Shown: positions 32,631 to 49,435, counted from the stretch's first letter. The stretch: 64,000 nt of DNA from an uncultured delta proteobacterium (GCA_963785235.1 CAWAUM010000010.1:1-64000); one strand, 5' to 3'. Translations and numbers: made by a program. Notes: generated by a model not told the origin, from the letters alone.

Positions 32631-34975
32631 ATGAAAAAGATCGTCCATTTCTGTATTGATCACCCATATTGGGTCCTGGGGATACTAGCGGTCATCACCC
32701 TCTTCTTTGCCCTCCAGATACCGAAGATCAAGATGGATTCGCGCGTCGAGGTCATGCTCAGGCATAATCACCCCGCAGTCAAGGTGTTCATCGAGAACAA
32801 GGAATCCTTTGACCAGTATTCGAATATCGTTGTGGGCATGCTGCACACCGATATCTATAATCCAAGCTCCCTGGAAAAGCTCCACAAGGTGACCCAGGAG
32901 ATAAGGCAGATAAAGGGTATAAAGAAGGTCACGTGCCTCTTGAATGCGAAGTACATCCAGGGCAGCGAATCGGGCCTGAATGTGTCACCCCTTGTCAAGG
33001 AAGGCTCTGTTCCCCAAACACCTGAAGAGATTGCCGCGTTGAAGGCCAAGGTCGACTCGTGGGACGTATACAAGGGTGCGCTCGTTACAAAGGACAACAA
33101 AGGGACAGCCATATCCATCGTGCTCGACAACAACATCGAGACGATCCAGATCATCCCCATGTACTTTACCATGGCAGGTATCCTGAAAAAATACGAAGGC
33201 CCGGAGAAATTCTTCATATCGGGCACCAAGGTCCTGGAGGCGCTCCAGAGCCACTACATGATCAAGGACCTCATCTTCCTGCCCCCCCTGGTGACCGTAG
33301 TCCTCCTCATATGCCTCTTCTTCTTTTTCAGGAATTTCAGCGGCATGCTCCTGCCCCTGCTCTCGGTGGGTATCGCCTGCCTGTGGACCTTCGGCATGAT
33401 GGCCCTGGCGAAGATCCCGCTGACCATGATCTCCACTGCCATGCCCGTGGCGCTCATGGCAGTGGGTGTGGGGTATGGAGTCCATGTGGTGGAGAATGTC
33501 TTTGCCGACTCGTCCGCAGGGAAAAAGGGCAAGTCCGAGATGAAGATCACCCTCATGAGGATAGCCATCCCGGTCGTCATCGCCGGCCTCACCGAGCTCA
33601 CCAGCTTCCTGTCCCTGTGCTCGTGGTGGGTTGTACCCCTGACCCAGTTCGGCATGTCATCCGCCTTCGGGTTCACCTGCGCCATGGTGCTCGTGCTCAC
33701 CTTTATCCCCGCTGATCCTGTCGCTGACCGACCGCGAAGACAAGATATATACCGCCCACCACCACACCAGGACCGACATTGTTGGCCCGATCCTGAAGCG
33801 TCTCTCCTACATAAGCCTCCACAAGAAGGGGTGGGTCTTCGCGATCTCCCTGGTGGTCTTCATTGCATCCTTCATGATGGGCAGGCACGTGAGGAGCGAC
33901 ATGAACCTGGCGGAAAACTTCAAGGAACGCAGCCCCATCAGATACGCGGACAAGATCCTGAACGACAATTTCGGGGGCACATCTCAGTACAACGTGGTCT
34001 TCAAGGGGAAGCAGGCAGACGATATCAAGGACCCTGCGGTGCTGAGGGCCATGGACAAACTCCAGAACGAGCTGAAGGGGATCGACGGGGTCGGCAAGGT
34101 TGTATCCGTTGTGGATTTCATCAAGCGGATGAACCAGTCCATGAATGGCGGCGACCCTGCCTTTTATACCATACCCGACTCCAAGGACCTTGTGGCCCAG
34201 TACCTGCTCCTCTATTCCTTTTCCGGCGGCGGCGATGAACTGGACACCTTTGTCACCTACGATTTCAAGGATGGGCAGATCCTGCTCCAGATGAAGTCCC
34301 AGAGCAGCTATCTGACACAGGATGTAGTTGATACGGTCAAGAGATTCGAAGACAAGGAGCAAGGGGATCCCCCAGGTGTCAGGGATCATTACTACAGGCC
34401 TTGCAATGCTCGCAAAAGAGTTCAACAAGGTTGTTGTTACGAGCCAGATCCAGAGCTTCATCTTCTCCTTCACCCTGTGCTTCTTCGTAACCGTGGGGAT
34501 CTTCCGCTCATTCAGGCTGGGTATCTACAGCATGGTGCCGCTCCTCATCCCCATTACCCTTGATTTCGGGCTCATGGGGTCTACAGGCATAAAGCTCAAT
34601 GCCGCAACCGCGACGGTAGCGAGCATCGATATCGGCCTGGGGATCGACTACTGCATCCATTTCCTTTCCAGATACCGTCATGAGATAAAGCTCGGCCGGT
34701 CAGTGGATGAGGCCATAGATTTCACCATGAACAGTGCAGGCAGGGCCATCATTTACAATGCCCTGGCCATCTCTGCAGGGTTCCTGGTCCTGGTGCCTTC
34801 TCAATTTTCGGTCATCTCCCAGATGGGCATCCTCGTGGCCGTGGATATGCTGACCATCGCCCTGTCTGCCCTTACCTTCCTGCCTGCCTGCATCAAGCTC
34901 TTTCCCCCGAAGATCCTCAAAGACACCTCGGATAAATACGTGGCCATAGACCCCTTGATGGAAGAACCCGGATAG
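32631..34975 (+). CDS. MMPL/RND-family transporter, split by indels near 33713 and 34363
   Basis: Two repeats of periplasmic loop plus TM bundle; G.G..Y..H and GLGIDYCIHF motifs. Confidence 0.85.
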
Positions 34976-35023: not shown

Positions 35024-36395
35024 GTGAACCTAGATCCGTTAATCCTCTCCCGCATCCAATTCGCCTTTACCGTCTCCTTTCATATAATCTTTCCTTCCAT
35101 AACCATCGGATTATCCATATGGCTGGCGCTGCTTGAAGGGCTGCATCTGTCGACCGGCAACTCTCTCTACCAGAGGCTCTTCGATTTCTGGCTGAAGATC
35201 TTTGCGATCCTGTTCGCCATGGGTGTTGTCACCGGCATAGTCATGGCATTCCAGTTCGGCACCAACTGGAGCGTGATGTCGTCAAAGGCAGGATCCGTCA
35301 TGGGGCCCCTGCTCGGGTATGAGACCTTCACGGCATTCTTGCTCGAGGCGACTTTCCTCGGTGTTGTCCTCTACGGCCGCAACCGCGTGGCGCCGTGGTT
35401 CTATTTCTTTTCGTGCTGCATGCTGGCCTTTGGGGCAGTCCTGTCGTCCTTCTGGATACTGTGCAACAACAGCTGGATGCAGGTGCCGGTAGGTTATGAA
35501 ATCATTGACAGGCAAAATCGTGCCCACCGACTGGAAGGCAATCGTCTTTGGGCCCACCTTCATTGCCCGCTGGATTCACATGCTCCTGGCCTCATTGCTG
35601 ACCACCACCATGTGCATCATCGCTGCCGGGGCGTTCTACCTTCTCCGGGGTGTTCACCGCCAGGAGGCCCGGTTCATGATGAAATGGGGACTGGCTGTTA
35701 CCGCCATCCTCATCGTCACCCAGATCATCATCGGAGACATCAACGGCAAGCACATGTACACCTACCAGCCGGCCAAATTCGCGGCCGTTGAGGCCCGCTG
35801 GCAGCCGGAACACCCGGGCAGGCAACTGTGGTTCGCCATCCCTGACGAAAAGAACGAAAGGAACCTCTTCGAGATCACCACACCTTACCTCGGAAGCTGG
35901 TTCGCCACAGGAAGCTGGAGCGCACCTGTATCCGGGCTCAGCGATTTTCCCAAGCAGGACCACCCCCCGGTGCTCATCGTGTTTTTTGCCTTCCGTGCCA
36001 TGGTGGGCATCGGCCTTTTCATGCTTGGCATCAGCCTGTTGGGCCTGTTCCTGCTCGCCAGGGGGGGGCTTGAAACCTCGCGCTGGTTCCTCTGGGCCTC
36101 GTGCCTGGCCTTCCCGTCCGGATTTCTGGCCGTTCTCCTGGGCTGGTTCACCACAGAAATAGGGCGCCAGCCCTGGGTGGTATACGGCCTTCTGCGCACA
36201 TCCGACACGCTGACCCCGACACTGACCGGGGCAAACGTTCTCACCACCCTCATTGGCTATGCGATTGTATACTCCATGATCTTTTTCCCTGGGGCCTTCT
36301 CTGTTTATGGCCTGCTTCTCCAAGGACCAACTGGAGCTGAAGCTCATATCACGGCTGACGCAGTAACAGCCGGCACCACTAAGGCAAAGGAGTAA
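35024..36395 (+). CDS. cydA: Cytochrome bd quinol oxidase subunit I, short Q-loop (CIO-like); frameshift near 35510
   Basis: LSRIQFAFT..FHI.FP, GVVTG..M.FQFGTNW, QPAK.AA.E, FRAMVG, GW.TTE.GRQPW. Confidence 0.93.
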
Positions 36396-36396
36396 T

Positions 36397-37380
36397 GTGA
36401 TGGGCGCAACCTGGCTTCCTGTCTTCTGGGCATCTCTGATTGCCTTTGCCATGCTCTTTTATGTCATTCTTGACGGTTATGACCTTGGAATCGGCATCCT
36501 GTCGGGCACTACCCGGGATGAGGATTTCAAGGATACCATGATGAGCGCCATCGCCCCATTCTGGAACGGAAACGAAGTCTGGTTAGTCCTCATCGGGGCC
36601 GGTCTCTTTGCAGTCTTTCCCATGGTCTATGCAATTTTTCTTCCCGCCTTCTACCTGCCCATGGCCCTTATGCTTATTGGGCTGATCTTCCGAGGTATCT
36701 CATTCGAATTCCGTTATCATGCAGGGCGCTACAGACGTTTCTGGGACTGGGGGTTCTGTTTCGGCTCCTTCATGGTAAGCCTTGTTCAAGGGATAGCCAT
36801 GGGAAGGATGGTCCAGGGGATCAGCGTTGTTAACGGGCAATATGCAGGGGGTGCATTCGACTGGCTGACTCCATTTTCTTTGTTCTGCGGTGTGGGTCTG
36901 GTAATCGGATATACGCTACTTGGTGCGGCCTGGCTGGTCTTCAAGACACAAGGCGATATACGCGATTGGGCCTATGACCAGTTGGGTTGGCTTCTTGCAG
37001 GGGTCCTTCTGGTTCTTGTGGTCGTCTTTGCCTACACCCTTGCCATCCATCCTCGTGTGCGGGATCGCTTTTTTGAAGACATGTGGCTTATGATATTCCC
37101 GCTGATCATAGTCCTTTCATCCATCAGCCTGTGGACAGGGGTAAAGAGAAGGCTTGATTGGGTCCCATACGGGATGGCCGTTGTCATCTTCTTTGCCGCA
37201 TTCCTGGCCCTGGAGGCCAGCTTCTGGCCTTATCTGATTCCATTCACCGTTACGATTGAAACGGCAGCGGCCCCTATAGAGTCGCTTCGATTCCTCTTCT
37301 ATGGGGCAGGGATAGTGCTCTTCCCTGTTATCTTATTCTACACCGGCATGGTTTACTGGATAATGCGGGGAAAGGTTTAA
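36397..37380 (+). CDS. cydB: Cytochrome bd quinol oxidase subunit II
   Basis: Y.ILDGYDLG.GIL, PFWNGNEVWL, LIFRG.SFEFR, Y...RGKV. Confidence 0.93.
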   Translation: MMGATWLPVFWASLIAFAMLFYVILDGYDLGIGILSGTTRDEDFKDTMMSAIAPFWNGNEVWLVLIGAGLFAVFPMVYAIFLPAFYLPMALMLIGLIFRGISFEFRYHAGRYRRFWDWGFCFGSFMVSLVQGIAMGRMVQGISVVNGQYAGGAFDWLTPFSLFCGVGLVIGYTLLGAAWLVFKTQGDIRDWAYDQLGWLLAGVLLVLVVVFAYTLAIHPRVRDRFFEDMWLMIFPLIIVLSSISLWTGVKRRLDWVPYGMAVVIFFAAFLALEASFWPYLIPFTVTIETAAAPIESLRFLFYGAGIVLFPVILFYTGMVYWIMRGKV

Positions 37381-37381
37381 C

Positions 37382-38527
37382 TTGCAAGCGAACCCGCCTC
37401 TTCTTCTTATAGCCGGGGCCGGAGGTGCTACAGGCTCTACCGTTGCCGCCGCCATTGCAGCAATGAAGGAAGACCCTGATAAAATGCTGCCCTGGCTGAC
37501 TACGAGCCACTGGTTTAAGGACCGGGACCTCCTGAGAGGCATGGAACTTGCCGGATGGGATGTAACCCCTCGAACCCTTGGGCAGGCAATCGAGTACCAT
37601 GGGGTTCTCCCCCCTGAGAAATATCTTTCCTGCCTGGAACATCTTGGCAAGTTTCCCATACGCCGCGCACCGGGCAATGATTTACCTCTTCATAAACAGG
37701 TGGAGCACCTCATAAGGGATATCCAAGATTTCAAGGGCCTCTTCCCGGATACCCACCCTGTTCTTGTCAATCTGCTTCCGGCAAGCAGCGTAATGGACCT
37801 TCAGGAATTCAAAGCCATCGATGAAATCTATTCTCAGGCCGATGTGCTGAACTTCCCTGATCTGGCCTATGTCCTTGCTGCCATATCTACAGGCACGCCT
37901 GTCGTGAACTTCACATCAAATTGCATCGAGTTGCCACTGATTGCCCAGGAGGCTCTTAATGCAGGGGTTCCCTTGTGCGGCCGCGACGGGAAGACCGGCC
38001 AGACCTATCTGAAGGTGGTGCTCGCCTCGGCACTGAAGGCACGTGGCCTGCAGGTGGATGGATGGTACAGTCTGAATATCCTTGGTAATGAAGACGGCAG
38101 GAACCTTGCTGACCCCGATAAGGCGGCAGGCAAGATCTCCAATAAAACAGAGCTGCTCGAAGATATTCTGGGATACCGGGTTGGTCATCAATATGGTGCG
38201 CCCTCCCATAAGGTTACAATCGATTATTATCCCCCCCGTGGGGACTGCAAAGAGGCCTGGGATGTCATTGACTTTACCGGGCTGTTCGGCATGCCCATGA
38301 GCCTCAGGTTGAATCTGCAGGCCCGCGACTCTATTCTGGCAGGGCCCATGATCATTGACCTGGCATGGTGGATGGTGGTCGTGCATATGGCCAAACGGCC
38401 CGGCCTGGTGCCGGAGCTGGGATTCTATTTCAAGAAACCCACAGGTGCTAATCCGCCAGTTACCTTTCAGGATCAGCTCGCTGCGCTTCAGAGCCTGGAA
38501 AATGATTGCCGGGAGATAATCCATTGA
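37382..38527 (+). CDS. ino1: Inositol-3-phosphate synthase (MIPS/Ino1) family
   Basis: Rossmann AGAGGATG, G.DGKTGQT..K, YSLNILGN.DG, SNK, IDYYPPRGD.KEAWD, RDSILA.P...DL, FYFKKP. Confidence 0.85.
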   Translation: MQANPPLLLIAGAGGATGSTVAAAIAAMKEDPDKMLPWLTTSHWFKDRDLLRGMELAGWDVTPRTLGQAIEYHGVLPPEKYLSCLEHLGKFPIRRAPGNDLPLHKQVEHLIRDIQDFKGLFPDTHPVLVNLLPASSVMDLQEFKAIDEIYSQADVLNFPDLAYVLAAISTGTPVVNFTSNCIELPLIAQEALNAGVPLCGRDGKTGQTYLKVVLASALKARGLQVDGWYSLNILGNEDGRNLADPDKAAGKISNKTELLEDILGYRVGHQYGAPSHKVTIDYYPPRGDCKEAWDVIDFTGLFGMPMSLRLNLQARDSILAGPMIIDLAWWMVVVHMAKRPGLVPELGFYFKKPTGANPPVTFQDQLAALQSLENDCREIIH

Positions 38528-39396
38528 AACTCGGATACAGCACGAACGCATTCATAAATTATTCATTATTCGATGCAATCGACATGATCGCCAAGCTGGG
38601 TTTCGGCGGGGTAGAAATCATGGCGGACCGCCCCCATCTCTACCCCCAGGACTGGGAGCCGGAAGGCCTCAAACGGCTCAAAAATCTGATTCATGAAAAA
38701 AGACTCCGGATTACCAACCTGAACAGCTTCACCCTGTTCGCCGTGGGCGACACCTACCTTCCCTCCTGGATAGAGCCCATGAAAGAGAGAAGGGAGATCA
38801 GGATCCAACACACCCTTGAATGCCTGAAGCTGGCATCTTATCTGGGGTGCAGCAATATCTCCGTTCCTCCAGGAGGCCCTTTGACCGGCATGTCCCGCAA
38901 GGAGGCCATGACCCTTTTCCATGACGGCATGGAAAGGGTTATACCCCTGGCAGAACAGCTTCAGGTAAAGATCCTTGTGGAACCGGAGCCTGACCTGCTT
39001 CTGGAAAATACCCGGCAGTTCAAGGAATTCATTCAGGAAACAGCATCGAAGTATCTCGGGCTCAATTTCGATATCGGTCATTTCTTCTGCGCCGGTGAAG
39101 ACGTATGCCGGGCCTTTCACGAACTTTTGCCCTGGACGGGGCATGTCCATATTGAAGATATTGCCCATAACCGCCGTCATTACCACCTTATCCCGGGCCT
39201 CGGGGCCATTGATTTTCACAACATCCTCAAGGTCATCCTCAAATCAGGCTATAAGGGTGATATCAGCCTGGAACTCTACACCTATGCGGACATGCCAGTG
39301 GAGGCCGGCCAGGAGAGCCTGAGCTTTCTCCTTCCCCTCTTTCAGGAAGCGGGGTTTGACCTTATGGCCATGCGCAGAGAAAGGCATCAAACATGA
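38524..39396 (+). CDS. Xylose-isomerase-like TIM-barrel enzyme (IolE/AP2Ec superfamily)
   Basis: LGYSTN, GF.GVE, ILVEPEP, NFDIGH, HVHIED, H.IPG.G.IDF, SLELY. TTG start overlaps the ino1 stop. Confidence 0.85.
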   Translation: MKLGYSTNAFINYSLFDAIDMIAKLGFGGVEIMADRPHLYPQDWEPEGLKRLKNLIHEKRLRITNLNSFTLFAVGDTYLPSWIEPMKERREIRIQHTLECLKLASYLGCSNISVPPGGPLTGMSRKEAMTLFHDGMERVIPLAEQLQVKILVEPEPDLLLENTRQFKEFIQETASKYLGLNFDIGHFFCAGEDVCRAFHELLPWTGHVHIEDIAHNRRHYHLIPGLGAIDFHNILKVILKSGYKGDISLELYTYADMPVEAGQESLSFLLPLFQEAGFDLMAMRRERHQT

Positions 39397-40216
39397 AGAA
39401 CAGGAGAATCGTAGCCTTGAAAATTTCAAACCCTCTCAACAATGATTCAAAACTATCTGGAAATGAACCTGATAAAAGAACGGCCTGTTCCGGTTCGCGC
39501 ACGGTTACCTCTCCAGGATAAGGCCCGATACGTTCTCAGGCACTTCACCACCATAGCCAACAAGTATGATTTCATGAATACCATCCTCAGCCTCGGACTC
39601 CACTACCTCTGGAAACGGCTATCCGTAAAGGCCTTGGGGTTGAAAACCGGCGACCGGGTAATCGACGTGTGCGGGGGTACAGGGGATCTTTCGATACTGG
39701 CGGCAAAGGCCATTGGTCCTCATGGACGGGTGACTCTCTATGACATCAACCGCGCCATGATGGAAGGCGGCAAGCCAAAGGTAGCAAAGGCATCGCTTAC
39801 AGAGCGAATCCACTTTGTCCAGGGAGATGCTGAGTTCATGTCTTTCCCCGAAGGTTCTTTTGATGCAGCCATGGTGGGCTTTGGTGTTCGAAACCTCACA
39901 GACATGGACAAAGGCCTTCAAGAGATGTACCGGGTCCTCAAGCCGGGGGGGAAGATGATGTGCCTGGAATTCTCCATACCCACCTCTTTGTGGTTCCGGT
40001 TCCTCTATGATTTCTATTCTTTTCAACTCATGCCCCTGGCGGGCAAACTCCTGGCGGGAAACAGCGAGGCCTATCTCTATCTTCCCGAGTCCATACGGAA
40101 GTTCCCTGCACCGGATGCTTTCGCAGCCAAGATGACGGATACCGGGTTTTACCCGGGTGACCTTCCGAAGGCTTACCAATGGTATTGCGGTTATCTATAT
40201 CGGGGTTAAACAATGA
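39393..40216 (+). CDS. ubiE: UbiE/MenG-family quinone C-methyltransferase; indels near 39513 and 40150
   Basis: F..IA.KYD.MN..LS.GLH..WK, DVCGGTGD, DIN..M, GDAE, FGVRN, RVLKPGG...CLEFS, Y.YL.ESI..FP. Correcting both indels gives ATGA overlaps at both ends. Confidence 0.85.
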
Positions 40217-40806
40217 AACTCAACTGGGCGGAGCGCATGGCGGTGAACAACCCCCTTCGACCACTGCAGCAGCGCCTGGAGCTCACGCTGCTGAAAAGGC
40301 ACATACCGCTGAAGCCCGGTTTGCGCATTCTGGAAATCGGGTGCGGAAGAGGGGCCGGTGCGCGTCTCATAAGAAACATATTCCATCCATCCCACATCCA
40401 TGCCACAGACCTGGATGTGGAGATGATCCGGATGGCACATACCTACCTTAGCCCTGAAGACCGCACCGGCATCGACTTCTGTGTTGCCGATGCCGCCATG
40501 CTCCCCTTCCCTGAGCGCTCCATGGACGCGGTGTTCGGTTTCGGGGTTCTGCACCATGTCCCTGACTGGCAGTCTGCACTCAGTGAGGTGGTCAGGGTCC
40601 TGAAGCCGGGCGGCATATACTTTTTCGAAGAGCTCTTTCCAACGCTCTACCAGAACTTCATAACAAAGCACATCCTCCTACACCCAAAGGAGAACCGTTT
40701 CAAGAGCCATGAGCTGAAGAAGACGATGAAACGATCAGGTCTTGTGCTTGGAAAATATTTTGAGATACGGCTTATAGAGATATTCGGAGTAGCTCAGAAA
40801 AACTAG
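40213..40806 (+). CDS. Class I SAM-dependent methyltransferase
   Basis: ILEIGCGRG, D.D..M, DA..LPF...S.DAV, LHHVPDW, RVLKPGG. Confidence 0.9.
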   Translation: MKLNWAERMAVNNPLRPLQQRLELTLLKRHIPLKPGLRILEIGCGRGAGARLIRNIFHPSHIHATDLDVEMIRMAHTYLSPEDRTGIDFCVADAAMLPFPERSMDAVFGFGVLHHVPDWQSALSEVVRVLKPGGIYFFEELFPTLYQNFITKHILLHPKENRFKSHELKKTMKRSGLVLGKYFEIRLIEIFGVAQKN

Positions 40807-40907
40807 CTCTTTTCTGCTTTGTTCATGTTTATCATTGAATATTATCGAAGAGATCAATAGTATTAGAAAATCGAGCCCTGTGATAAGATACCGTTTAAGG
40901 AGGGCAT

Positions 40908-42518
40908 ATGTCCTCGAACAGGGTGCCGCTTGATGAGATCCTTTCTCCCGATGAATGCCGGATTATTGATGCCTACGCATCCGGTAATCAAGGTGAGGAT
41001 GTCTTACCCGGCATAGTTGAATTCCTCAGGATGAACTTTTCAATGAGGATCGATGTCGACCCTGACATCATTGACAGCTACAAGACCGACAGTTCCAACC
41101 TGACCGGGAATGCTTCAGCCCTCGCAAGGCCATCTGATGAACGTGAATGCGCTATTATCCTTCGCATGTGCCAGTCGTCCCGAATGCCAGTCACTCTATC
41201 CGCCGGCCGCTCGAACCTCACGGGTAGCGCCACCCCACCAGATGGGATGATTGTCTCCCTCTCAGAGATGAAAACTCCTGGAATACAGGTCAACAATATC
41301 GCAAAATCGGTTGTCAGCCCTGTAGGAATTATTTTCGAAGACATGAGGAAGTCCGTGCTTGAACAAAGTGAAGGGAAACTCTTCTTTCCCATAGACCCGA
41401 CGAGCCGTTGTGATGCCATGGTCGGTGGCGCCATTGCATGCAATGCCTCCGGGTTCACACCGGGAGAGACCGGTGCCATGCGTTCCTGGGTTCGATCTCT
41501 CCGGATCCTCCTTATGAACGGCATGGGCATTACCGCCAGGCGCGGTCAATATGTCTCCGAGGATGGGATGTTTCTATTCACTCATGGATCACAGGAGCTT
41601 GCTGTTCCCGTTCCCAGGTACTCAAGGCCATCGATAAAAAATGCAAGCGGTCCGTATTCCAACTCGAACGGCAGTGTCGACCTTGTCGATCTGATAATTG
41701 GCAGCGAAGGGATATTTGCACTGGTGACCGAATGCACTCTGGCATTGTCCGATCATCCGCGTGAATATCTCGATCTGTTCCTCTCTCTGCCCGATGAGTC
41801 TGATGCCCTGAATCTTCTGGTTTATCTCTCCGGAAGGCTGCCGGAGGAGTTTTCATTGCTCAGTGCTTTTGAATATTTCGGTCCGAATTGCAGGAGATAT
41901 ATGGACCACGAACACCGGCTTTTTAGGACCGACCATGCTGTTGGTGTCTATATACAGGTCCCCTTGCACAATGAGCCACTGGAGCAATCAGCGGCGAAAT
42001 GGCTTGGGATCCTCCAGGATGCCCCATGCCGGATCCAGGAGGATGCCATCATGATTCTTCTGACGGATCGTGACAGGGCGATCTTTTTCGAAGCCCGCCA
42101 CTCCTTGCCGGCACGTTCGCTTGAAGTAGTAACAAGGCGCGGCACCCATACTATCATGACCGATACGGTTGTCCCGTTGGCGGGGTTTGCAGAGTTCCTT
42201 GAATACACCCATGCCCTCATCCTTTCGGAAGGGTTCGATTACCTCGTCTTCGGTCACCTGGGCGACTGTCATCTCCATTTCATGATCCTCCCGGAAAAAG
42301 ACCAGCTACGCCGTGGGGTGGATGTGTACGACAGAATCATAGAAAAGTCCTCAACCCTGGGAGGTGTCTACTCGGGCGAGCACGGCACGGGTAAGAGGAA
42401 ACGAGGCGATTTCCTGAAATGTTATGGTGCCCAGGCAGCAGAACAGGTCCTGGCAACAAAATGTGTATTCGACCCCCTGCTTCTCCTCAACCGTGGCAAT
42501 GTCATAGCATCTCCTTAA
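40908..42518 (+). CDS. FAD-binding oxidoreductase (VAO/GlcD/D-lactate dehydrogenase family)
   Basis: PIDPTS...A.VGG.IA.NASG, GSEGI, GH.GD.HLH, SGEHG.G, FDP...LN.G. Confidence 0.85.
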   Translation: MSSNRVPLDEILSPDECRIIDAYASGNQGEDVLPGIVEFLRMNFSMRIDVDPDIIDSYKTDSSNLTGNASALARPSDERECAIILRMCQSSRMPVTLSAGRSNLTGSATPPDGMIVSLSEMKTPGIQVNNIAKSVVSPVGIIFEDMRKSVLEQSEGKLFFPIDPTSRCDAMVGGAIACNASGFTPGETGAMRSWVRSLRILLMNGMGITARRGQYVSEDGMFLFTHGSQELAVPVPRYSRPSIKNASGPYSNSNGSVDLVDLIIGSEGIFALVTECTLALSDHPREYLDLFLSLPDESDALNLLVYLSGRLPEEFSLLSAFEYFGPNCRRYMDHEHRLFRTDHAVGVYIQVPLHNEPLEQSAAKWLGILQDAPCRIQEDAIMILLTDRDRAIFFEARHSLPARSLEVVTRRGTHTIMTDTVVPLAGFAEFLEYTHALILSEGFDYLVFGHLGDCHLHFMILPEKDQLRRGVDVYDRIIEKSSTLGGVYSGEHGTGKRKRGDFLKCYGAQAAEQVLATKCVFDPLLLLNRGNVIASP

Positions 42519-42812
42519 GGCACAATACTTCTTAGATCCTCACGTCATTTAACCGCTTTTCACTGGCACAGTCCATCAGATGTCATTATACAAAACCGAT
42601 GATCTCAAATATAATCTATGATGAATCAGGCCAGATCTGAGTATAACACATAGCACGAACTCATCAGTTTCTCCGCACTTGTGGAACCGTTGAGTATGGA
42701 CAGCAATTTATCGGAATAAGCTACTCTTTGACGTAGCAAGGTTAAAAAAATACATTGTCTTATCGAGTAAATAATGAGTTTCAGCCTATCAAAGACTACC
42801 GCCCTTCAAAAC

Positions 42813-44765
42813 TTATTTATCATCGTCAAGCCGGTACCGTTTCTCTCTATAGGAAATAGTCGGCCAGATGGCCTGTGCCAAGGCGTCCCTGATGAGTTCC
42901 GGATCCTTTTCGACCGGCTCCAGCTTGCCTTGCCGGAGAATATACGCGGTTGCAGGCTTATTGGGGGTATGGATTACCACCTGGTCTCCCACCATGTAGG
43001 CCTGGTTGTTGTGGAACTGCATAACAGCCCGGCCAGGATAATTTTTAGGCGTTTGCAAAAGGTCATGACCTTGCATGGGATGACTCGATTCGATCCCCAT
43101 GATAGACAGAAGAGTCGGTGCTAGATCAATCTGGCTGGCCACTTTGTCGTAGCGGCCTGGCTTGACATCAGCCCCTATAATCAGTGCCGGAATATGAAAA
43201 CTCTTGACGGGTACCAGTTCGTCGCCGAAAACCTTTTCTTCATGGTCAGCCACAACCAAGAACAGCGTATTATCCCAGTAAGGGGCCTTTTGAGCACGCT
43301 CAAAGAACTTTCCAAGGGCATAATCAGAGTATTTTACAGCGTTATTGCAGGTATTTTTGGGCTTCTCATAGAGTTCTATGCGCCCATCGGGGTATTTGAA
43401 GGGAGCGTGGTTGGATACGGTGAATACAAAGGTGAAAAAAGACTTATTCCCATGGGCTAGAAGCTTTTGGTGGGTAAGGTTGAAAATATCCTCGTCGGAG
43501 ACCCCCCAGGTGCCATGAAAAACCGATTCGGTAAAGTACTTTTCATCGACCACACGATCGAAACCGTTTCCAAGGAGAAAGCCCTGCATGTTGTCGAATT
43601 TGCTGTCCCCTCCATAGAAAAACTCGGTGGTGTACCCCTGCTTTTTCAAGAGGCGGCCGATGGTAAAAAAGTTATGCTGTGACAGACCCAGTTTAACGAT
43701 ACTGCGCAACGGTGTCGGGGGAAAGCCTGTCACAACAGCCTCGACCCCTCCGGACGAACGTGTCCCAGTGGCATACAGCTGGCTGAACCATAGACCTTTC
43801 TGCGAAAGCTTTTCCAGCTCCGGAGTCAGAGGAAGACCGCCCAAGGATTGAACAAACATACCACCCAGGCTTTCCTCGAGAATAATGACAAGATTGAGTG
43901 GCCGGTCCCGTTTCTGCTTCGGAATTTGCCTGTGTAGCGTCGGGATATCCGGGTTGGTGAATGCAGCCTCGGGAAAGCCCATCGCCTTGTGCACGCGCCG
44001 GATGACCTCATCAGTGTCCATTTTACCGTAAGATCGCATCGAATACGACTCATTATAAATTCCGTAAATTGCATAGCAAAGAGAATAGGCGGAACTGACC
44101 CCCAACTGGTTGACCAGGGGATCGTTGCAAAAAGCTGCCGTATTCAGGTTGGCGGGGCGGCTGCTGAAACTGGATCGGGCGCCGGCAAAAAGAAGAAGCA
44201 GAACCAAGGGCAGAACAACCAGTCTCCGCTTTACCCCCCATGGCTGAGATGCAAGGGTCAGCCTATGAATCAATTTCCAGCTCCCCAAGACCGTCAGGAC
44301 AATCAGGACCCCAGCCAGGATCAGGGGGACTTTGTAAGCGGACCATAAGGTTGAAAAGACCTCCTGTGGATGATCGAGATATTCGAAGAAGAGACGGTTC
44401 GGACGGATGTCGAACTGGTCTATAAATGATGGCGTTGCCACCTCCATAAATACAATAAACACGGCATACCCTGTCAGCCATACTTGCAAAACGCGATGCC
44501 AGATGCGGTGAATCTTGTTACTGGAGGGGAGAAGAAGGCTTATGAGGGTAGGCAGGGCAACGGCGATCGATAACAACAAAACATCCATGCGGATGCCATA
44601 CCCTAAGACTGGCCACAGTCCTTCGATGGCTGTGACCCTGTCCCATTTCCAAGCAATGAAGCATAGTCGGGCCAAGCCCAGAAAAACAAGTGTCACAAGA
44701 AAAAAGCCGAATATCGGTAATAACGGGCCTAAATATTTAGCTAACCAACTTTTTACAGTCATCAT
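42813..44765 (-). CDS. LTA synthase/MdoB-like phosphoglycerol transferase (sulfatase superfamily)
   Basis: About five N-terminal TMs, NLVIILEES, WGV.DE, T.SNH.P, Y.D..LG.F, ADH, SQIDLAPT. Confidence 0.85.
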   Translation of the reverse strand: MMTVKSWLAKYLGPLLPIFGFFLVTLVFLGLARLCFIAWKWDRVTAIEGLWPVLGYGIRMDVLLLSIAVALPTLISLLLPSSNKIHRIWHRVLQVWLTGYAVFIVFMEVATPSFIDQFDIRPNRLFFEYLDHPQEVFSTLWSAYKVPLILAGVLIVLTVLGSWKLIHRLTLASQPWGVKRRLVVLPLVLLLLFAGARSSFSSRPANLNTAAFCNDPLVNQLGVSSAYSLCYAIYGIYNESYSMRSYGKMDTDEVIRRVHKAMGFPEAAFTNPDIPTLHRQIPKQKRDRPLNLVIILEESLGGMFVQSLGGLPLTPELEKLSQKGLWFSQLYATGTRSSGGVEAVVTGFPPTPLRSIVKLGLSQHNFFTIGRLLKKQGYTTEFFYGGDSKFDNMQGFLLGNGFDRVVDEKYFTESVFHGTWGVSDEDIFNLTHQKLLAHGNKSFFTFVFTVSNHAPFKYPDGRIELYEKPKNTCNNAVKYSDYALGKFFERAQKAPYWDNTLFLVVADHEEKVFGDELVPVKSFHIPALIIGADVKPGRYDKVASQIDLAPTLLSIMGIESSHPMQGHDLLQTPKNYPGRAVMQFHNNQAYMVGDQVVIHTPNKPATAYILRQGKLEPVEKDPELIRDALAQAIWPTISYREKRYRLDDDK

Positions 44766-44943
44766 CAGAGTGATCCTTCCAGTGAATAGGGGAAGTTCGT
44801 CATAGGAGGGAGAGGTTTACAGAGAAAATATATACAACTATCAAAGTATTATATCCCTCTATTCATGAACATCCAACTTACTGAATTTAGTCAAATACTC
44901 AGTTTAAATTAATTACAAATAAATGCAGATTGGTGTTATCATA

Positions 44944-45654
44944 TTACTCCTTCTCCATGGGAAAGGTCAGCCCCGCCCCGAACCAGCCGATGACGCTCAC
45001 CATGGGCACGAGGGATATGACCAGCAGGAGATAGATAAGCCCCTCCGTGCCGAGCGAGGTGAACACGTCCGGAAACATGGCCCGCCAGAGAAACGTGATC
45101 AGTGCCACACAGAAAAGGATAAGAGACAGGTATATCTTGATCCTGATGGGCGTCATGGGCCGGGCTCCGTAGTTGAGCCACCAGGTGAAGAAGCCGCTCA
45201 GGATGGCCGGGACCGAAAAGAGGATGCCTGCGCCCAGGCAGTGGAACGCGGTTGTCTCAAAGGATTTCACATCCGTGATGAGGAACAGGATGCAGAACAG
45301 GGCCGGGGTGATGGAAAAGGCGATGGGGAAGTGTACGAGCATGGGGTGCGGGTGGCGCCGGAAAAACGGGAAGCGCTTCAGCAGCATCTCGAGCGGGTTG
45401 GGCAGTGAGCCTGCATCTCCCTTTTTCTTCAACACGCCCACTTGGGGATATTTATCCAGGACCTCGGGTCCGTGCGGGGCCGCACCGATATCGGTGGTGA
45501 GGTCCTGGCCTGCTGGGTGACGCTTCATGTGGAGCCCGGTCTTCCACAGCCTGCTTTCGCTTAGGTCAAACACCCTGCCCTTGTGGGCCACATATGCGGG
45601 TTTTCCATCCTTTCCGCTGAATTCCGCCAGAGATTCCGGATCGAATTCCTTCAT
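44944..45654 (-). CDS. Cytochrome b5-like heme/steroid-binding domain fused to a DUF2231-like four-TM domain
   Basis: L.EF.GKDG.PAYVA..G.VFD...W..G.H...H.AGQDLT.....APHG; then HPMLVHFPIA...G..GA.L.F. Confidence 0.85.
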   Translation of the reverse strand: MKEFDPESLAEFSGKDGKPAYVAHKGRVFDLSESRLWKTGLHMKRHPAGQDLTTDIGAAPHGPEVLDKYPQVGVLKKKGDAGSLPNPLEMLLKRFPFFRRHPHPMLVHFPIAFSITPALFCILFLITDVKSFETTAFHCLGAGILFSVPAILSGFFTWWLNYGARPMTPIRIKIYLSLILFCVALITFLWRAMFPDVFTSLGTEGLIYLLLVISLVPMVSVIGWFGAGLTFPMEKE

Positions 45655-45696
45655 AGTGTCCTTCCTTGATAGGGCACAGGATAACCCATAATACTA

Positions 45697-46638
45697 TTAA
45701 AAAAACGTCAAGCTCAACACTGTTGTCAGGAGCATGAACAAAGGATAGTAGCTGCACCTGTTAAACAGTTGAAATGCCTCCGCGGCCCCCCTGGTCTTAT
45801 ACAAATGGTAAGCAGGTATCAGGATAAAATACAATCCCGAAAACATCGCCCCCAGGAGATAGACAGGGCTTATGTGGTTTGGCACTATCCAGAACATGGC
45901 CACACTCATGGCAACGGCAAAGGCCAGCGAAGCATAGATGATCTTTATAGACACCTGTGCACCGAAGCGTACAGGGATTGTCCGGGCCTTTATCTGCTGA
46001 TCGGTATCCAGATCGGACAGATCGTTCGGGACATTCTGCCCTCCGATCTCCCAGAAGAAGAGCCAGAGAAAGAGTATTATCAAGAATGGCATGGAAGGTT
46101 GAGGCGTTACTGCAAATACAGCCGCAATGGGGCCCGAGGTTTTGACTATCCCGCTGATGATACTGCGGAGGTGGGTGATCTTTAAGAGATAGCAGTAGAT
46201 GACTTCAAACATACAGGCACCAAGGAAAATGACAATGCATATGGGATTGAGAAAAAAGGCCCCTGTCAGCGCCAGAACCGCCCAGGCAGAGGCCCACAAC
46301 AGGGCATCCCTGTATCTCAACATCCCCTGCGCAAGGGGGTGGCGTACTAATACGCTGTCCAGGTCCGGTTTCGATTCATGGGCTTTGTTTGAGTGAATGA
46401 GTTCCTTGTCAACACGGTAATCTATGATATCGTTCAGTGCATAAACAGCCGTATAACCCGAGAAGGCGGTGATCAGACCCAGGACAATGACACTTGCAGG
46501 GGGAAAGGCACCCAAACAAAGCAGGGCCGCCAACCCGGGGGTTGCCAGATCCAATAGTAAATGGGGCGTGCGGGAAAGTGCGAGAAAAAGGTTCAGTCTC
46601 GTAATTCCTGCCTGCACTGGAAATGATGTGGTCTTCAA
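45697..46638 (-). CDS. UbiA-family prenyltransferase
   Basis: Multi-TM. First Asp-rich motif NDIIDYRVD plus RHPL..G; second NDLSDLDTD...RTIPVRFG. Confidence 0.88.
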   Translation of the reverse strand: MKTTSFPVQAGITRLNLFLALSRTPHLLLDLATPGLAALLCLGAFPPASVIVLGLITAFSGYTAVYALNDIIDYRVDKELIHSNKAHESKPDLDSVLVRHPLAQGMLRYRDALLWASAWAVLALTGAFFLNPICIVIFLGACMFEVIYCYLLKITHLRSIISGIVKTSGPIAAVFAVTPQPSMPFLIILFLWLFFWEIGGQNVPNDLSDLDTDQQIKARTIPVRFGAQVSIKIIYASLAFAVAMSVAMFWIVPNHISPVYLLGAMFSGLYFILIPAYHLYKTRGAAEAFQLFNRCSYYPLFMLLTTVLSLTFF

Positions 46639-46667: not shown

Positions 46668-49259
46668 TTATTTCTTCTTCTTTTTAAATAACCCCTCCAT
46701 CATATTATCAAGGGATTTGCGGGTTCCATCCGTACCGGACGGCAGCGTGCCTTTGTCCTGGAGCTTCTTCAGGCCCTGATCCAAGGCCTTGTTGGCGTAG
46801 TACCTGGTGAAGGCACTGCTCAAAGATTTTACCTCCACCATGGGAAGAGGCTTCTTGACCGAGCCGGTAATGGTGATGGGCAGCACGAGCCGTTTCTGGT
46901 CGTTCATGATGGCCGAAAATGCGTCGGCCCTGGCGCCCATGCGCTGGGAGAACCGCTTGGGCAGCACTACGTTTCCCTTGAGATGCACCTCATTGGTCTC
47001 CATGCTGATGGTGCCCTTCAGGTTGGACTCGGTATCCACATCCTTGCCGCTCGAAATATTCAGGAGCTTCATGGAGTCGACATTGATGACCTTCTTGGCA
47101 AGGTCGATACTCGTATTCAGCGATTCAAAGCGGGTTGCATTGTATTTCTGTACCTCTGCCGGGGCAAAGCCGAAGATCTCCGATGCCCCGGGCACTCCCA
47201 GAATGGAGCTCAGGGCTGTGCCTGCCAGGTCGAAATTCTTCCACTCACCCTTGCTGATGGTCAGATTACCCTTGGCGCCAAGGTTGTTCAGTGCAGGTGA
47301 ACCGGCCACACCGGTGGCCTTGAGGTCGCCCGAGATGGCCCCGGTAAACACCCCCTTGAAATTCGTGAGCACGTCCAGGATACTGCCTGCCTGCACATTG
47401 TTGAACACAGGGGCTGCAGCCCATGCCTTGGTCTTGAGGTTGTACGATGCAGATCCCCTGATGGAACCCTTGAGCGCGTTCAGGTCGAATGAGCTCACCT
47501 TGAACTGGTCATTTTCCAAGGTAAAGGTGCTGACAAGGGTTGAATATGGCACTTCCATGAAAACGCCTCCCTGGGACTTCATGGAACCCCTGGCCGTGAG
47601 CGCCTTATCCTTTTTCAGGGCATCCACCGCAAAGGTAACGGCATTCATATCGGCCTTCATGGGGCCTGCCAGGACCTTGGCCTTGGGCTGCTCACCTTCC
47701 TTGGGCTTGGTGAGTACAAGGCCCATGCGCTCGGATGCGGCCTGTACATTAATGGCCATGGGTCTGCCGGTCCCACCGCTCAGAATGGTCTTCACCACTA
47801 CATTCCCTGTAGGCTTGAATGCCTGCAGCATGGGGATGATAGCCTGGGCAGCCTGCAGCGAGACAGGTCTGGTCTGTATGCTGATCTGGTAGCTTGATTT
47901 GCCGGAAGCCTTTCGTGCCTCGCCTGAACCTTGTGCTGTTATGGCCCCGAGGTTGAGATCAAGGACGTTGATCTGGGTTATCTCGGGTTTCAAGGTTAAC
48001 CTGCTGGAAAAAGTCATGGGGCTGCCTGCAGGCTTGCTTAAGATCTTGCCAAAGGTGATTGCCATGGGTTTCATGTCAACAGCCGTATTCACCTGGAACG
48101 CCTCTTTGGTGCCCGTGGTGATCAGGCTGAATCCGGCAGGTCCGGCAAGGGTTATCTTGGCGGGTATGAGCCCGGCAAACATGGGCAGCTGTTCAAGAAT
48201 GGGACCCGGGGTTAGGCGATCCGACTTGAAGGACATGTTCCAGGCCGGAGCTGTCCTGAAATTTTGGAGTGCTCCCTGGAAAGAACCGCGGTCCTGCCCC
48301 AGTGTAAAGGTGCCGTTGCTGATCATGAGCTGCTGCTTGTCAAACTCCAGGATGAGATCGTTGGTAATTTTGCATGAAATGCCCTTGAGACCTTTTGCAG
48401 GTTGTTTGATGTCAGCGCTGCGCAATACAAGCCCTTCCAGGTCCAGGGCCACCTTGGAGGCGATCTTGTCTTTCAGGATCCCTTTCGCGGTGATGTCGAT
48501 CTTCATGGCACCTGCCTGAATGGGCATCTTCACCGGGAGTGCGGTAAGGGGCAGCGAATCCAGAACAAGATGCACGTCTACCGGCATCCCTGTAAAACCG
48601 CCCGTTTCCGGCATCGGCCCTACCGTGCCTGCCAGGGCAAAATTCTGTCCTTCAGGGCTCATTACCGATGCAGACAGAGAGAATGAAACGGGTTTGAACA
48701 TGGAGATGTCCTGAGATTCCAGTTCGATATCGCTGATGGCAAAGGGCTTGGCCTCAGGCCCCAGTTTTTCATCCCTGTAGGTTATCATACCCTGCTTTAT
48801 CACCACGTTGCTCACCAGCAATGAGGCAAAAGCCCCGGGCTTTGGTTTCTTCGGTTTCTCACCCGGCTTAGGCGTGACCAGGGTTGCGAAGTTGAACACG
48901 CCTTGAGCATTCTTCACAATATGAATCTGCGGCTCCTTGAGTACAACTGTGTTGATCTTTATCTGCCTTGCCAGCAGGGGCAGAATGGCAACCCTGACCT
49001 TTGCCGCCTTGAGGGTAAGGAAGTCGTCCTTTGAGAATGCCGCGTCATCAAAGATGCGCAGGTCTTTTATCTCAGCACCCAGACCAGTCAGGATCGTGAG
49101 CTTGATTTCCCTGAAATCCACCTGCCTGTTCGTGTAGGTCTTGATCTGGGCAAGGATAGTGTCCTTGTGCTTGTTCAGGTCTATGGCAAAAGGCAATATG
49201 GCAAGGATTACAACAATCAATCCAACAACAGCAGCAACGCCGATTGCAAACTTTTTCAT
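46668..49259 (-). CDS. AsmA-family protein
   Basis: N-terminal anchor, DLN..K..I, V.ILPLL.RQ, G.FNF..L; C-terminal LPI.ITG....P. Confidence 0.8.
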   Translation of the reverse strand: MKKFAIGVAAVVGLIVVILAILPFAIDLNKHKDTILAQIKTYTNRQVDFREIKLTILTGLGAEIKDLRIFDDAAFSKDDFLTLKAAKVRVAILPLLARQIKINTVVLKEPQIHIVKNAQGVFNFATLVTPKPGEKPKKPKPGAFASLLVSNVVIKQGMITYRDEKLGPEAKPFAISDIELESQDISMFKPVSFSLSASVMSPEGQNFALAGTVGPMPETGGFTGMPVDVHLVLDSLPLTALPVKMPIQAGAMKIDITAKGILKDKIASKVALDLEGLVLRSADIKQPAKGLKGISCKITNDLILEFDKQQLMISNGTFTLGQDRGSFQGALQNFRTAPAWNMSFKSDRLTPGPILEQLPMFAGLIPAKITLAGPAGFSLITTGTKEAFQVNTAVDMKPMAITFGKILSKPAGSPMTFSSRLTLKPEITQINVLDLNLGAITAQGSGEARKASGKSSYQISIQTRPVSLQAAQAIIPMLQAFKPTGNVVVKTILSGGTGRPMAINVQAASERMGLVLTKPKEGEQPKAKVLAGPMKADMNAVTFAVDALKKDKALTARGSMKSQGGVFMEVPYSTLVSTFTLENDQFKVSSFDLNALKGSIRGSASYNLKTKAWAAAPVFNNVQAGSILDVLTNFKGVFTGAISGDLKATGVAGSPALNNLGAKGNLTISKGEWKNFDLAGTALSSILGVPGASEIFGFAPAEVQKYNATRFESLNTSIDLAKKVINVDSMKLLNISSGKDVDTESNLKGTISMETNEVHLKGNVVLPKRFSQRMGARADAFSAIMNDQKRLVLPITITGSVKKPLPMVEVKSLSSAFTRYYANKALDQGLKKLQDKGTLPSGTDGTRKSLDNMMEGLFKKKKK

Positions 49260-49435
49260 GTAAAAAACCTCCTTTGTGAGAACAACTGCGAACATCCCCA
49301 CACCTGGAGGTTATATAACATGCACTAGCTGGACAGACAACGGGTGACTCCGAATAACCGGGGGACGGATTCCTGTTCACATTTTAATCCCAGGCACCAA
49401 TCGCTATTCACTATTTCTGATCACTGATCACAATG

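Follow-up and report, generated by a model that had tools for sequence, protein, structure and literature searches.

What would a divergent member of the myo-inositol-phosphate synthase (MIPS) family and a xylose-isomerase-like TIM barrel do in an operon that opens with a cytochrome bd oxidase and continues with quinone methyltransferases? The question is raised by a stretch of 64,000 nucleotides from an uncultured delta proteobacterium (GCA_963785235.1 CAWAUM010000010.1:1-64000, hereafter the window). It is contig C10 of a 3.9-Mb genome in 13 contigs, 93% complete (labelled G000), whose nearest public relatives are Desulfomonilia metagenome-assembled genomes (MAGs). An earlier note on the window had proposed that these genes encode a route from inositol to a ubiquinone-like quinone without hydroxylases. 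Comparison across genomes leads to a related reading, to which we assign a probability of about one half: judging from gene content and order, the region would be one lineage's version of a conserved Desulfobacterota module making a prenylated, methylated benzoquinol, with ring carbons and oxygens derived from a hexose phosphate. All genes named in the earlier note were confirmed at their coordinates by open reading frame (ORF) calling, Pfam and NCBIfam; the family scan of window proteins covered the ORFs from about 26.9 to 52.3 kb. The genes of the proposed module are the following.

35024-36395, plus strand: cydA, cytochrome bd oxidase subunit I (two overlapping ORFs, covering PF01654 profile positions 1-158 and 157-413)
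36397-37380, plus strand: cydB, cytochrome bd oxidase subunit II (PF02322 278 bits; TIGR00203 141.9 bits, cut-off 117.3)
37382-38527, plus strand: Ino1L, divergent MIPS-family sugar-phosphate cyclase (PF01658 1e-30, PF07994 2e-14)
38506 or 38524 to 39396, plus strand: TIM barrel of the AP_endonuc_2 (xylose-isomerase-like) family (PF01261 130.8 bits), hereafter TIM
39442-40209, plus strand: UbiE/MenG-family quinol C-methyltransferase (TIGR01934 230.6 bits, cut-off 158.35)
40213-40806, plus strand: MT2, second S-adenosylmethionine-dependent methyltransferase (Methyltransf_11 85 bits)
44944-45654, minus strand: cytochrome b5 domain fused to a four-helix DUF2231 membrane domain, b5-DUF2231 (PF00173, PF09990)
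45697-46638, minus strand: divergent UbiA-superfamily prenyltransferase (PF01040 106.8 bits)

The two oxidase subunits were recognised by their families (PF01654 and PF02322) and are encoded by adjacent genes; cydA is intact in relatives.

The Ino1L clade and its TIM-barrel partner

The distribution of Ino1L was evaluated in 301 evenly sampled Desulfobacterota genomes. Matches at E ≤ 1e-20 were found in 51 of them, and the scores were bimodal. Eleven genomes, the window's own included, matched over the full length with 51-100% identity (E ≤ 4e-116) and fell in families f1, f26, f33, f73, f74 and f93; the other 40 showed identities of at most 44% and E ≥ 1e-50. A metagenome scan yielded 18 further loci of the clade (53-58% identity) and 62 canonical MIPS loci (≤ 47%). 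Judged by identity, Ino1L is a clade distinct from canonical MIPS, with at least 51% within it versus at most 47% outside. A search of the protein Atlas returned only the query proteins' own clusters. A candidate locus from Pyrinomonadaceae (L007) was discarded; it holds a canonical MIPS with unrelated neighbours.

Ino1L belongs to the MIPS family, with 54.4 bits for PF07994 (cut-off 25) and 106.2 bits for PF01658 (cut-off 27), and its best solved relative is the MIPS 7nwr. Alignment to the solved MIPS 7nwr and 1u1i revealed that the catalytic-region motifs GxDGKTGxT...K, NILGNxDG, DxKEAWD and DSxLAxP are kept. The motif residues, among which we presume the catalytic ones to lie, are invariant in 12 clade members. 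The curated inositol-3-phosphate synthase equivalog TIGR03450 gave 32.2 bits versus a cut-off of 638. Since the solved members of the MIPS family include a five-membered-cyclitol-phosphate synthase (6k96), the product of Ino1L cannot be assumed.

Of the 34 clade loci, 30 have TIM directly after Ino1L; in the other four, no more than 270 nt of sequence remain beyond Ino1L. As a control, 63 canonical-MIPS loci were inspected; a TIM barrel was present in one of them, at 27% identity and 5 kb away, and none contained ubiE, ubiA or oxidase genes. As far as gene neighbourhoods go, the pairing of Ino1L with TIM is invariant and peculiar to this clade of MIPS proteins. TIM itself remained below every NCBIfam equivalog cut-off (IolO 63 bits, IolE 43, EboE 31). 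This includes the dehydratases IolE (TIGR04379, 43.4 bits versus 290) and QuiC (23 bits versus 1200), so the fold family PF01261 is the only membership found. Among solved proteins, those closest in sequence are a 3-keto-glucoside 4-epimerase, MJ1311 and AsbF, a 3-dehydroshikimate dehydratase (structure 3dx5, E 1e-7).

Linkage to quinone genes and O2 reductases

UbiE is found directly after TIM in 16 of the 21 clade loci whose downstream sequence extends for 2.5 kb or more, and five or more GTDB-type families (f1, f26, f33, f73 and f93) share the order Ino1L-TIM-UbiE-methyltransferase. Among ten loci from genomes of the phylum sample, MT2 follows in six, UbiA converges in four and b5-DUF2231 is present in two. 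The window's gene order is repeated in five Desulfomonilia MAG loci (L004 without cydAB, L002 without the FAD oxidase and sulfatase-family genes described below) and in part in other families; this recurring arrangement is far beyond chance. The window UbiE falls within its family, scoring 260 bits with the MpqE model, the best single model, and 239 bits with the UbiE model, and it is the sole UbiE-family gene of its genome. At L009:8345-9148 (genome G147) a DUF169 protein follows TIM in place of UbiE; the UbiE of G147 is on contig C282.

The UbiA translation shows the NDxxDxxxD motif. Its best NCBIfam score was 86 bits with ubiA_other (cut-off 181); MqnP gave 49 and DGGGPS 47. The models for 4-hydroxybenzoate (4-HB) prenyltransferases were not reached either, TIGR01474 giving 38.8 bits versus 275 and the other models 38-52 versus 364-392. 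Of the 301 genomes, 34 carry the UbiA clade (≥ 44% identity), one split gene counted, and 19 carry the core TIM clade (≥ 50% identity). The former occurs in 15 of the 19 core TIM carriers versus 19 of the remaining 282 genomes. When TIM was accepted from 41% identity, 20 of 27 genomes had the UbiA clade versus about three expected by chance; all these co-occurrence figures are descriptive and not test statistics, because related genomes are not independent.

The neighbourhood of the UbiA clade was also read in 20 more genomes, the majority lacking Ino1L. The commonest neighbour was b5-DUF2231 (11 of 20), along with MT2 or a UbiG-like methyltransferase (11) and UbiE (6); TIM and cydAB were each found in two genomes and cco genes in one. 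His42, His46 and His61 of the b5-DUF2231 protein are invariant, the protein has an RRHPHPxxxHxP motif, and three invariant histidines are found in its membrane domain. In its AF2 model (pLDDT 76.9) the N-terminal domain matches the prokaryotic cytochrome b5 domains 6nzx and 6vz6 with 50-53% identity; the fold search gave no PDB match for the membrane part. The protein may transfer electrons to or from the quinone, or carry out a tailoring step. At L011:8805-9521, divergently upstream of Ino1L, lies the gene for another DUF2231 protein, this one joined to a cytochrome c domain of the cbb3 type in place of b5; a homologue of it (64% identity) adjoins UbiA in L104. DUF2231 thus appears to occur with interchangeable haem domains.

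The link to cydAB proposed in the earlier note is restricted to the window's own family, with cydAB upstream of Ino1L in six loci; in other lineages, cbb3 operons take that place. In L012 (G145, f73), L028 and L034, genes for ccoN (COX1), FixO/cytochrome c, cytochrome c and a CcoI-type P-type ATPase are immediately upstream on the same strand. L014 has the CcoI-type ATPase alone upstream, at a contig end, and the cluster of L113 is flanked by both oxidases, bd and cbb3. That two unrelated terminal oxidases are neighbours of the module in different lineages suggests that it takes part in reducing O2 or in defence against it. At L028:10009-10722, the gene of an Fe/Mn superoxide dismutase comes right after Ino1L-TIM, downstream of the cbb3 oxidase operon.

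Sister clusters were informative. A true UbiG lies between TIM and UbiE, in place of MT2, in L014 (G236) and L021, with TIGR01983 scores of 243.8 and 249.7 bits versus a cut-off of 102.95. In L113, from a 6-Mb genome in three contigs (G206), a UbiG of 261.4 bits stands beside UbiA. The order there is cydBA (divergent), TIM (55% identity), a 3-dehydroquinate-synthase-like (DHQS-like) sugar-phosphate cyclase (NF004852, 552 bits), UbiG, UbiA (45%), a 96-aa ORF, UbiB/ABC1 (401 bits, cut-off 488), a CcoI-type ATPase and ccoOP/ccoN. The DHQS-like cyclase takes the place of Ino1L beside TIM (55-57% identity) in G206 and G264. The TIM and DHQS-like pair of G264 is the same (51% identity), and each genome keeps a second, AroB-like copy at 35% identity. 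Two unrelated kinds of cyclase are thus paired with one TIM family, and this exchange is the strongest reason to expect a carbocyclic C6 compound as the product of the pair. The presence of UbiG and UbiB in the sister clusters argues in turn for a methoxylated benzoquinone as end product, and not a naphthoquinone.

The predicted route and its alternatives

In the proposed route, Ino1L would cyclise glucose-6-phosphate to an inositol or inosose phosphate, and TIM would eliminate phosphate and water and aromatise the ring. The most parsimonious, and probable, product of this step is 1,2,4-trihydroxybenzene. The divergent UbiA would then add a polyprenyl chain, and MT2, or UbiG in the sister clusters, would O-methylate a catechol-type hydroxyl to give 2-methoxy-6-polyprenyl-1,4-benzoquinol, which is the substrate named for the UbiE family in NCBIfam. 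C-methylation by UbiE would lead to a demethoxyubiquinol-like quinol, ubiquinol itself having one more oxygen. The O2 reductases encoded alongside, cytochrome bd here and the cbb3 oxidase elsewhere, would draw on this quinol or be protected by it. The balance is simple: glucose-6-phosphate and inositol-3-phosphate are isomers, inositol-3-phosphate minus phosphate would correspond to a deoxy-inosose (C6H10O5), and the loss of two waters from it would give trihydroxybenzene (C6H6O3) with no net redox change. The cluster contains one prenyltransferase, one O-methyltransferase candidate and UbiE, and no decarboxylase or hydroxylase, which is exactly the gene content that a trihydroxybenzene route would need.

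The central idea of the earlier note, a quinone built by a sugar-phosphate cyclase, an IolE-fold TIM barrel, UbiA, UbiE and a methyltransferase and linked to O2 reduction, has strong comparative support, and its chemistry is a prediction. The intermediates it named are another matter. It had suggested that an inosose becomes 1,2,3,4-tetrahydroxybenzene and then ubiquinol, and the interchange of the MIPS-like and DHQS-like cyclases favours instead a redox-neutral passage from deoxy-inosose to trihydroxybenzene and a demethoxyubiquinol-like product. 1,2,4-Trihydroxybenzene is preferred because the DHQS-like cyclase, which would yield deoxy-inosose directly, replaces Ino1L and would give the same oxidation level as inositol phosphate minus phosphate. 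The tetrahydroxybenzene variant is possible if Ino1L releases an inosose phosphate; it would require a net oxidation and a double O-methylation and fits the DHQS-like swap less well. The Frost and Kakinuma laboratories have reportedly dehydrated myo-2-inosose to 1,2,3,4-tetrahydroxybenzene and 2-deoxy-scyllo-inosose to 1,2,4-trihydroxybenzene under acid catalysis. This is the same dehydration chemistry as proposed for TIM; theirs are non-enzymatic synthetic steps and not part of a natural quinone pathway.

Other quinone routes were looked for in the window's own genome. MqnA/D, UbiD (PF01977) and MenB above its cut-off were not found in this 93% complete genome. No canonical MIPS was found either, Ino1L being the single MIPS match. 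A UbiB-like gene is present outside the cluster. UbiD was likewise not found in G209, G236 and G179, and UbiX was not searched for; in most carriers of the module, UbiD family counts are uninformative, with many paralogs. A MenA-like prenyltransferase was noted elsewhere in the own genome (G000:C1:239642-240532, corresponding to L001:9643-10533; TIGR00751 119 bits versus 102). With neither MqnA/D nor MenB above its cut-off in the genome, it resembles a late step left on its own, as in a naphthoquinone scavenger. Cultures of Desulfomonile are supplemented with 1,4-naphthoquinone (PMC7773648).

Over the phylum sample, MqnA/D was found in 151 of the 301 genomes and MenB above its cut-off in 12. 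Strong UbiG matches numbered 21, of which 15 are in small genomes of families without MqnA/D; these probably belong to the class with a canonical O2-independent ubiquinone pathway (PMC13386864). About 123 of the 301 genomes show none of MqnA/D, MenB above cut-off and strong UbiG, that is, no recognised quinone head-group pathway. When genomes with TIM (≥ 41% identity) or the UbiA clade were taken as carriers (41 genomes, leaving 260 non-carriers), 15 had MqnA/D and none had MenB above the cut-off. Neither marker was detected in 26 of the 41, or in 21 if MenB-like matches below the cut-off are counted. Those matches (283-341 bits) were not regarded as MenB because they co-occur with MqnA/D in several genomes; we take it that they may be BadI-like.

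A number of observations weigh against the proposed quinone module. Regarding gene linkage, five of the 21 long loci have Ino1L-TIM without UbiE or UbiA (L009, L024, L028, L031 and L032). The UbiA clade is lacking in four of the 19 core TIM carriers (G147, G165, G169 and G236; the contig of G165 ends at the expected UbiA site), and the core TIM clade is missing from 19 genomes with the UbiA clade. Regarding the enzymes, the families named nearest to TIM are epimerases and isomerases and not dehydratases, all far below their cut-offs. The window MT2 is no UbiG (39.5 bits versus 102.95), and the UbiA clade is remote from all characterised prenyltransferases, with AfUbiA as the sole solved match (E 9e-4), so that a non-aromatic acceptor is possible. 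In the present assembly, cydA and ubiE are frameshifted. Ring hydroxylases (UbiI/H/F, Coq7, UbiU/V) were not found among the window ORFs scanned, flavin monooxygenases not having been searched for. The validity of the earlier note's phrase 'without hydroxylases' is limited to the cluster; elsewhere in the genome there are three matches to the U32 family, homologues of which are possible O2-independent hydroxylases; G209, G145 and G236 have them as well, and the family also matches in control genomes that make no ubiquinone.

The markers are equally ambiguous. About 97 of the 260 non-carriers also lack MqnA/D, MenB and strong UbiG, so the enrichment among carriers is modest and not specific. 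Moreover, four futalosine-positive carriers (G024, G065, G101 and G145) have no UbiE/MenG besides that of the cluster, which must therefore also serve menaquinone there, as UbiE of E. coli does. The conservation of UbiE could thus be explained by menaquinone alone, which weakens it as evidence for a benzoquinone. The same four genomes carry a UbiA-family gene outside the cluster; such a gene lies beside MqnA/D in G145 and G147. Finally, gene families, order, conservation and co-occurrence are observations, from which we infer every chemical step and product.

Some of these points would be accommodated if two separate O2-response modules had become neighbours by co-regulation with the O2 reductases. 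Ino1L-TIM would then provide a soluble cyclitol-derived compound (a protectant, a reductant or a cofactor precursor), and UbiE, the methyltransferase, UbiA and b5-DUF2231 would be a late-step quinone module with a ring from elsewhere. The pair standing alone beside cbb3 genes and superoxide dismutase in L028, and alone in the other four loci, agrees with such an arrangement. So do the distance of 1.7 Mb in G264 between the TIM and DHQS-like pair and UbiA-UbiG-UbiE, the UbiA-clade genomes without core TIM, and UbiE as sole MenG candidate in futalosine-positive carriers. We consider it unlikely all the same. It leaves the excess of the UbiA clade among core TIM carriers to be explained, as well as UbiG and UbiE directly behind TIM in L014 and L021 and the cyclase and TIM of L113 that adjoin UbiG, UbiA and UbiB. 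UbiG has no menaquinone role, and these genomes lack the context of a canonical ubiquinone pathway; the genomes in which UbiD was not found are G000, G209, G236 and G179.

The product could also be a lipid of the ether type, namely a prenylated cyclitol, or else a secondary metabolite of the meroterpenoid class, as in ebo/thallusin or BE-40644, with methyltransferases that merely decorate it and no respiratory quinone. The combination of cyclase, TIM barrel and UbiA follows the same logic as ebo (10.64898/2026.05.21.724671; PMC5133447), and the UbiA clade scores the DGGGPS models nearly as well as those of 4-HB prenyltransferases (47 versus 39-52 bits). The weak match of TIM to EboE, 31 bits, is far from the cut-off of 250, and no EboA, EboB or EboF-type genes were found in the window or the sister loci examined. 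This possibility seems quite remote to us, given that the synthesis of respiratory benzoquinones is typified by UbiB and by UbiE and UbiG, which here pass the subfamily and the equivalog cut-off respectively, and that the module is found repeatedly inside terminal-oxidase operons. Ordinary inositol-phosphate synthesis for lipids or solutes, placed by chance beside menaquinone late-step genes and cydAB with no functional link, is highly improbable. It would suit the database name, inositol-3-phosphate synthase, and the intact catalytic motifs; it is contradicted by the separate standing of the Ino1L clade, by a TIM tied to that clade alone (30 of 34 versus 1 of 63 loci) and by the Ino1L-TIM-UbiE-methyltransferase order shared among families, and neither a CDP-alcohol transferase nor a phosphatase was found among the scanned neighbours.

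Neighbouring genes, known systems and significance

The remaining genes around the proposed benzoquinol module are these.

32631-34975, plus strand: MMPL/RND-type lipid transporter (split into ORFs 32631-34238 and 34328-34975; Pfam MMPL and sterol-sensing domain)
40908-42518, plus strand: GlcD-like FAD-linked oxidase (PF01565, PF02913)
42813-44765, minus strand: membrane-anchored sulfatase-family protein, 650 aa (PF00884 171 bits)

The earlier note had rightly placed an FAD oxidoreductase downstream and UbiA with the cytochrome b5-membrane protein in convergent orientation; the sulfatase-family gene that lies between them was not mentioned there. Its suggestion that the FAD enzyme may take part in the pathway was not upheld. 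The FAD oxidase was found in only one of the 34 Ino1L-clade loci, that of the window, and is therefore not regarded as part of the pathway. The sulfatase-family gene was rejected as a module member as well; it too is confined to the window, being absent from L002 and the other clade loci. The MMPL transporter is intact as one 792-aa ORF in L004 and also lies upstream of the module in L008; it is a module neighbour in the own family. On the other side, the gene of an AsmA/DUF748-family protein of 877 aa (46668-49301, minus strand) comes after UbiA in coordinate order, on the same strand, with conserved synteny in L004, L006 and L008. Proteins of the AsmA type are linked to the transport of lipids to the outer membrane.

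The genes of the operon are tightly packed. Spacers of 1 nt separate cydA from cydB and cydB from Ino1L, and the Ino1L stop overlaps the TIM start (TTGA) if TIM begins at TTG 38524, the point where the relatives' TIM proteins begin to align. The spacing between ubiE and MT2 is 3 nt as assembled and becomes an ATGA overlap once one inserted base is removed, in the frame that gives a normal UbiE C-terminus. The gaps of 1 bp and overlaps of 4 bp that the earlier note described throughout are therefore seen after discounting two insertions, except between TIM and ubiE, where 45 nt remain as assembled. Alignment with L002, the closest relative, shows a single surplus base of the window in cydA (near 35508) and another in ubiE (near 40147), the latter shifting the UbiE C-terminus; the N-terminal 21 residues of UbiE are uncertain. 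Short-read contigs of related populations have one base fewer at 35508/35510 in all three covering runs (X1, X3 and X5, one contig each) and at 40147 in the sole covering run (X5), so that the indel correction made in the earlier note was justified. Single-base indels split further genes, the MMPL gene upstream and a U32 gene on another contig (G000:C2:268093-268762). Several genes being split in this way, the breaks in MMPL, cydA, ubiE and U32 suggest indel errors of an error-prone long-read assembly rather than pseudogenes; strain-specific decay is also possible.

One of the closest known systems is ebo (eustigmatophyte-bacterial operon)/thallusin. There, EboD (DHQS-like) or Ino1 and the xylose-isomerase-like EboE give a cyclitol-derived aromatic ring, which is prenylated by the UbiA-family EboC, and an Actinomycetota variant is proposed to use Ino1 and two isomerase/dehydratase genes (10.64898/2026.05.21.724671). 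A sugar-phosphate cyclase, a TIM barrel and UbiA are thus common to both. The window TIM is nevertheless not EboE (NF035939 30.9 bits versus 250; 31.4 for the L113 homologue). No TatD (eboB) or phosphodiesterase-type gene was found among the scanned neighbours, and the 21 NCBIfam matches of UbiA include none named EboC. An aspartate-derived quinoline is not implied here, and the present module has UbiE, UbiG or MT2, UbiB and its terminal-oxidase operon setting. BE-40644 of Actinoplanes also involves a cyclitol made by a sugar-phosphate cyclase, dehydrated and then prenylated by a UbiA-superfamily enzyme (PMC5133447). According to the portion of that account consulted, its cyclitol is C7, formed from sedoheptulose-7-phosphate via EEVS, its product is a secondary metabolite, and UbiE, UbiG, UbiB and an oxidase context are not part of it.

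A third arrangement of MIPS and TIM was observed in L118-L121 and L123 (G081:C79, G295:C95, G222:C5, G220:C22 and G212:C213). A divergent MIPS of 29-37% identity is accompanied there by a pair of TIM paralogs, which stand in tandem in three of the loci (L118-L120) and close by in the other two (L121 and L123); no UbiE, UbiA or oxidase genes were found within about 7 kb. The set resembles the 'ino1-ino2-ino3' proposed for the Actinomycetota ebo variant and possibly represents a different pathway. The UbiA-b5-DUF2231-MT2 trio lies elsewhere in G081, G295 and the other f2 genomes G148 and G179, and no UbiA-clade match was found in G220, G222 and G212.

With canonical ubiquinone synthesis the module shares a UbiA-family prenyltransferase, UbiE, UbiG (in sister clusters), UbiB (in L113) and the predicted UbiE substrate. 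It differs in that the cluster lacks UbiC, UbiD, UbiX and a hydroxylase, in a UbiA that is not of the 4-HB type and in the ring, which comes from chorismate and 4-hydroxybenzoate there and would come from hexose phosphate here. An O2-independent UbiT/U/V route is described for the Desulfobacterota class GWC2-55-46, of the same phylum (PMC13386864). As far as the consulted text of that 2026 survey goes, ubiquinone outside Pseudomonadota was found, among 26,264 genomes, only in one Desulfobacterota class with canonical genes; the survey adds that more quinones probably await discovery. Menaquinone synthesis (Men or futalosine) has UbiE/MenG in common with the module and coexists with it in the 15 carriers with MqnA/D. 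On the other hand, its naphthoquinone head group is made from chorismate, the own genome yielded neither MqnA/D nor MenB, and G145 and G147 have the separate UbiA-family gene beside MqnA/D. The literature searches yielded no account of a sugar-derived quinone route of this kind, the supplements of PMC13386864 and the thallusin preprint lying outside their scope. The late steps of quinone biosynthesis and the logic of cyclitol-derived meroterpenoids are known; their combination as a chorismate-independent benzoquinol route would be new.

To our knowledge, chorismate or an aromatic amino acid is the source of the ring in every known respiratory quinone; for benzoquinones, a decarboxylation and as many as three hydroxylations are required in addition. 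Tentatively, we propose that many Desulfobacterota may make a ubiquinone-type (methoxy-methyl-polyprenyl) benzoquinol for their bd and cbb3 reductases by a third pathway, independent of chorismate and O2, that joins the classical route at the UbiE substrate. Ino1L or the DHQS-like cyclase, together with an aromatising TIM barrel dedicated to this step, would derive the intact ring with all of its oxygens from a hexose phosphate by way of a cyclitol. If true, it would offer a new answer to how such quinones arose and function without O2, the ring being already oxygenated from sugar, and anaerobic lineages of sulfate reducers would join those that have ubiquinone-like quinones. Genome-based prediction of quinones would change, and part of the 'quinone-less' genomes of recent surveys could be accounted for. 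An unusual quinoid from Desulfomonile tiedjei, said to have been reported by Louie and Mohn in 1999, might also find its origin here. The short gene set (cyclase, TIM barrel, UbiA, O-methyltransferase and UbiE) would be directly testable in E. coli. The proposal would also explain why these genes are found inside the operons of two unrelated high-affinity O2 reductases: strict anaerobes would gain a quinone of higher potential dedicated to O2 reduction by bd and cbb3 oxidases.

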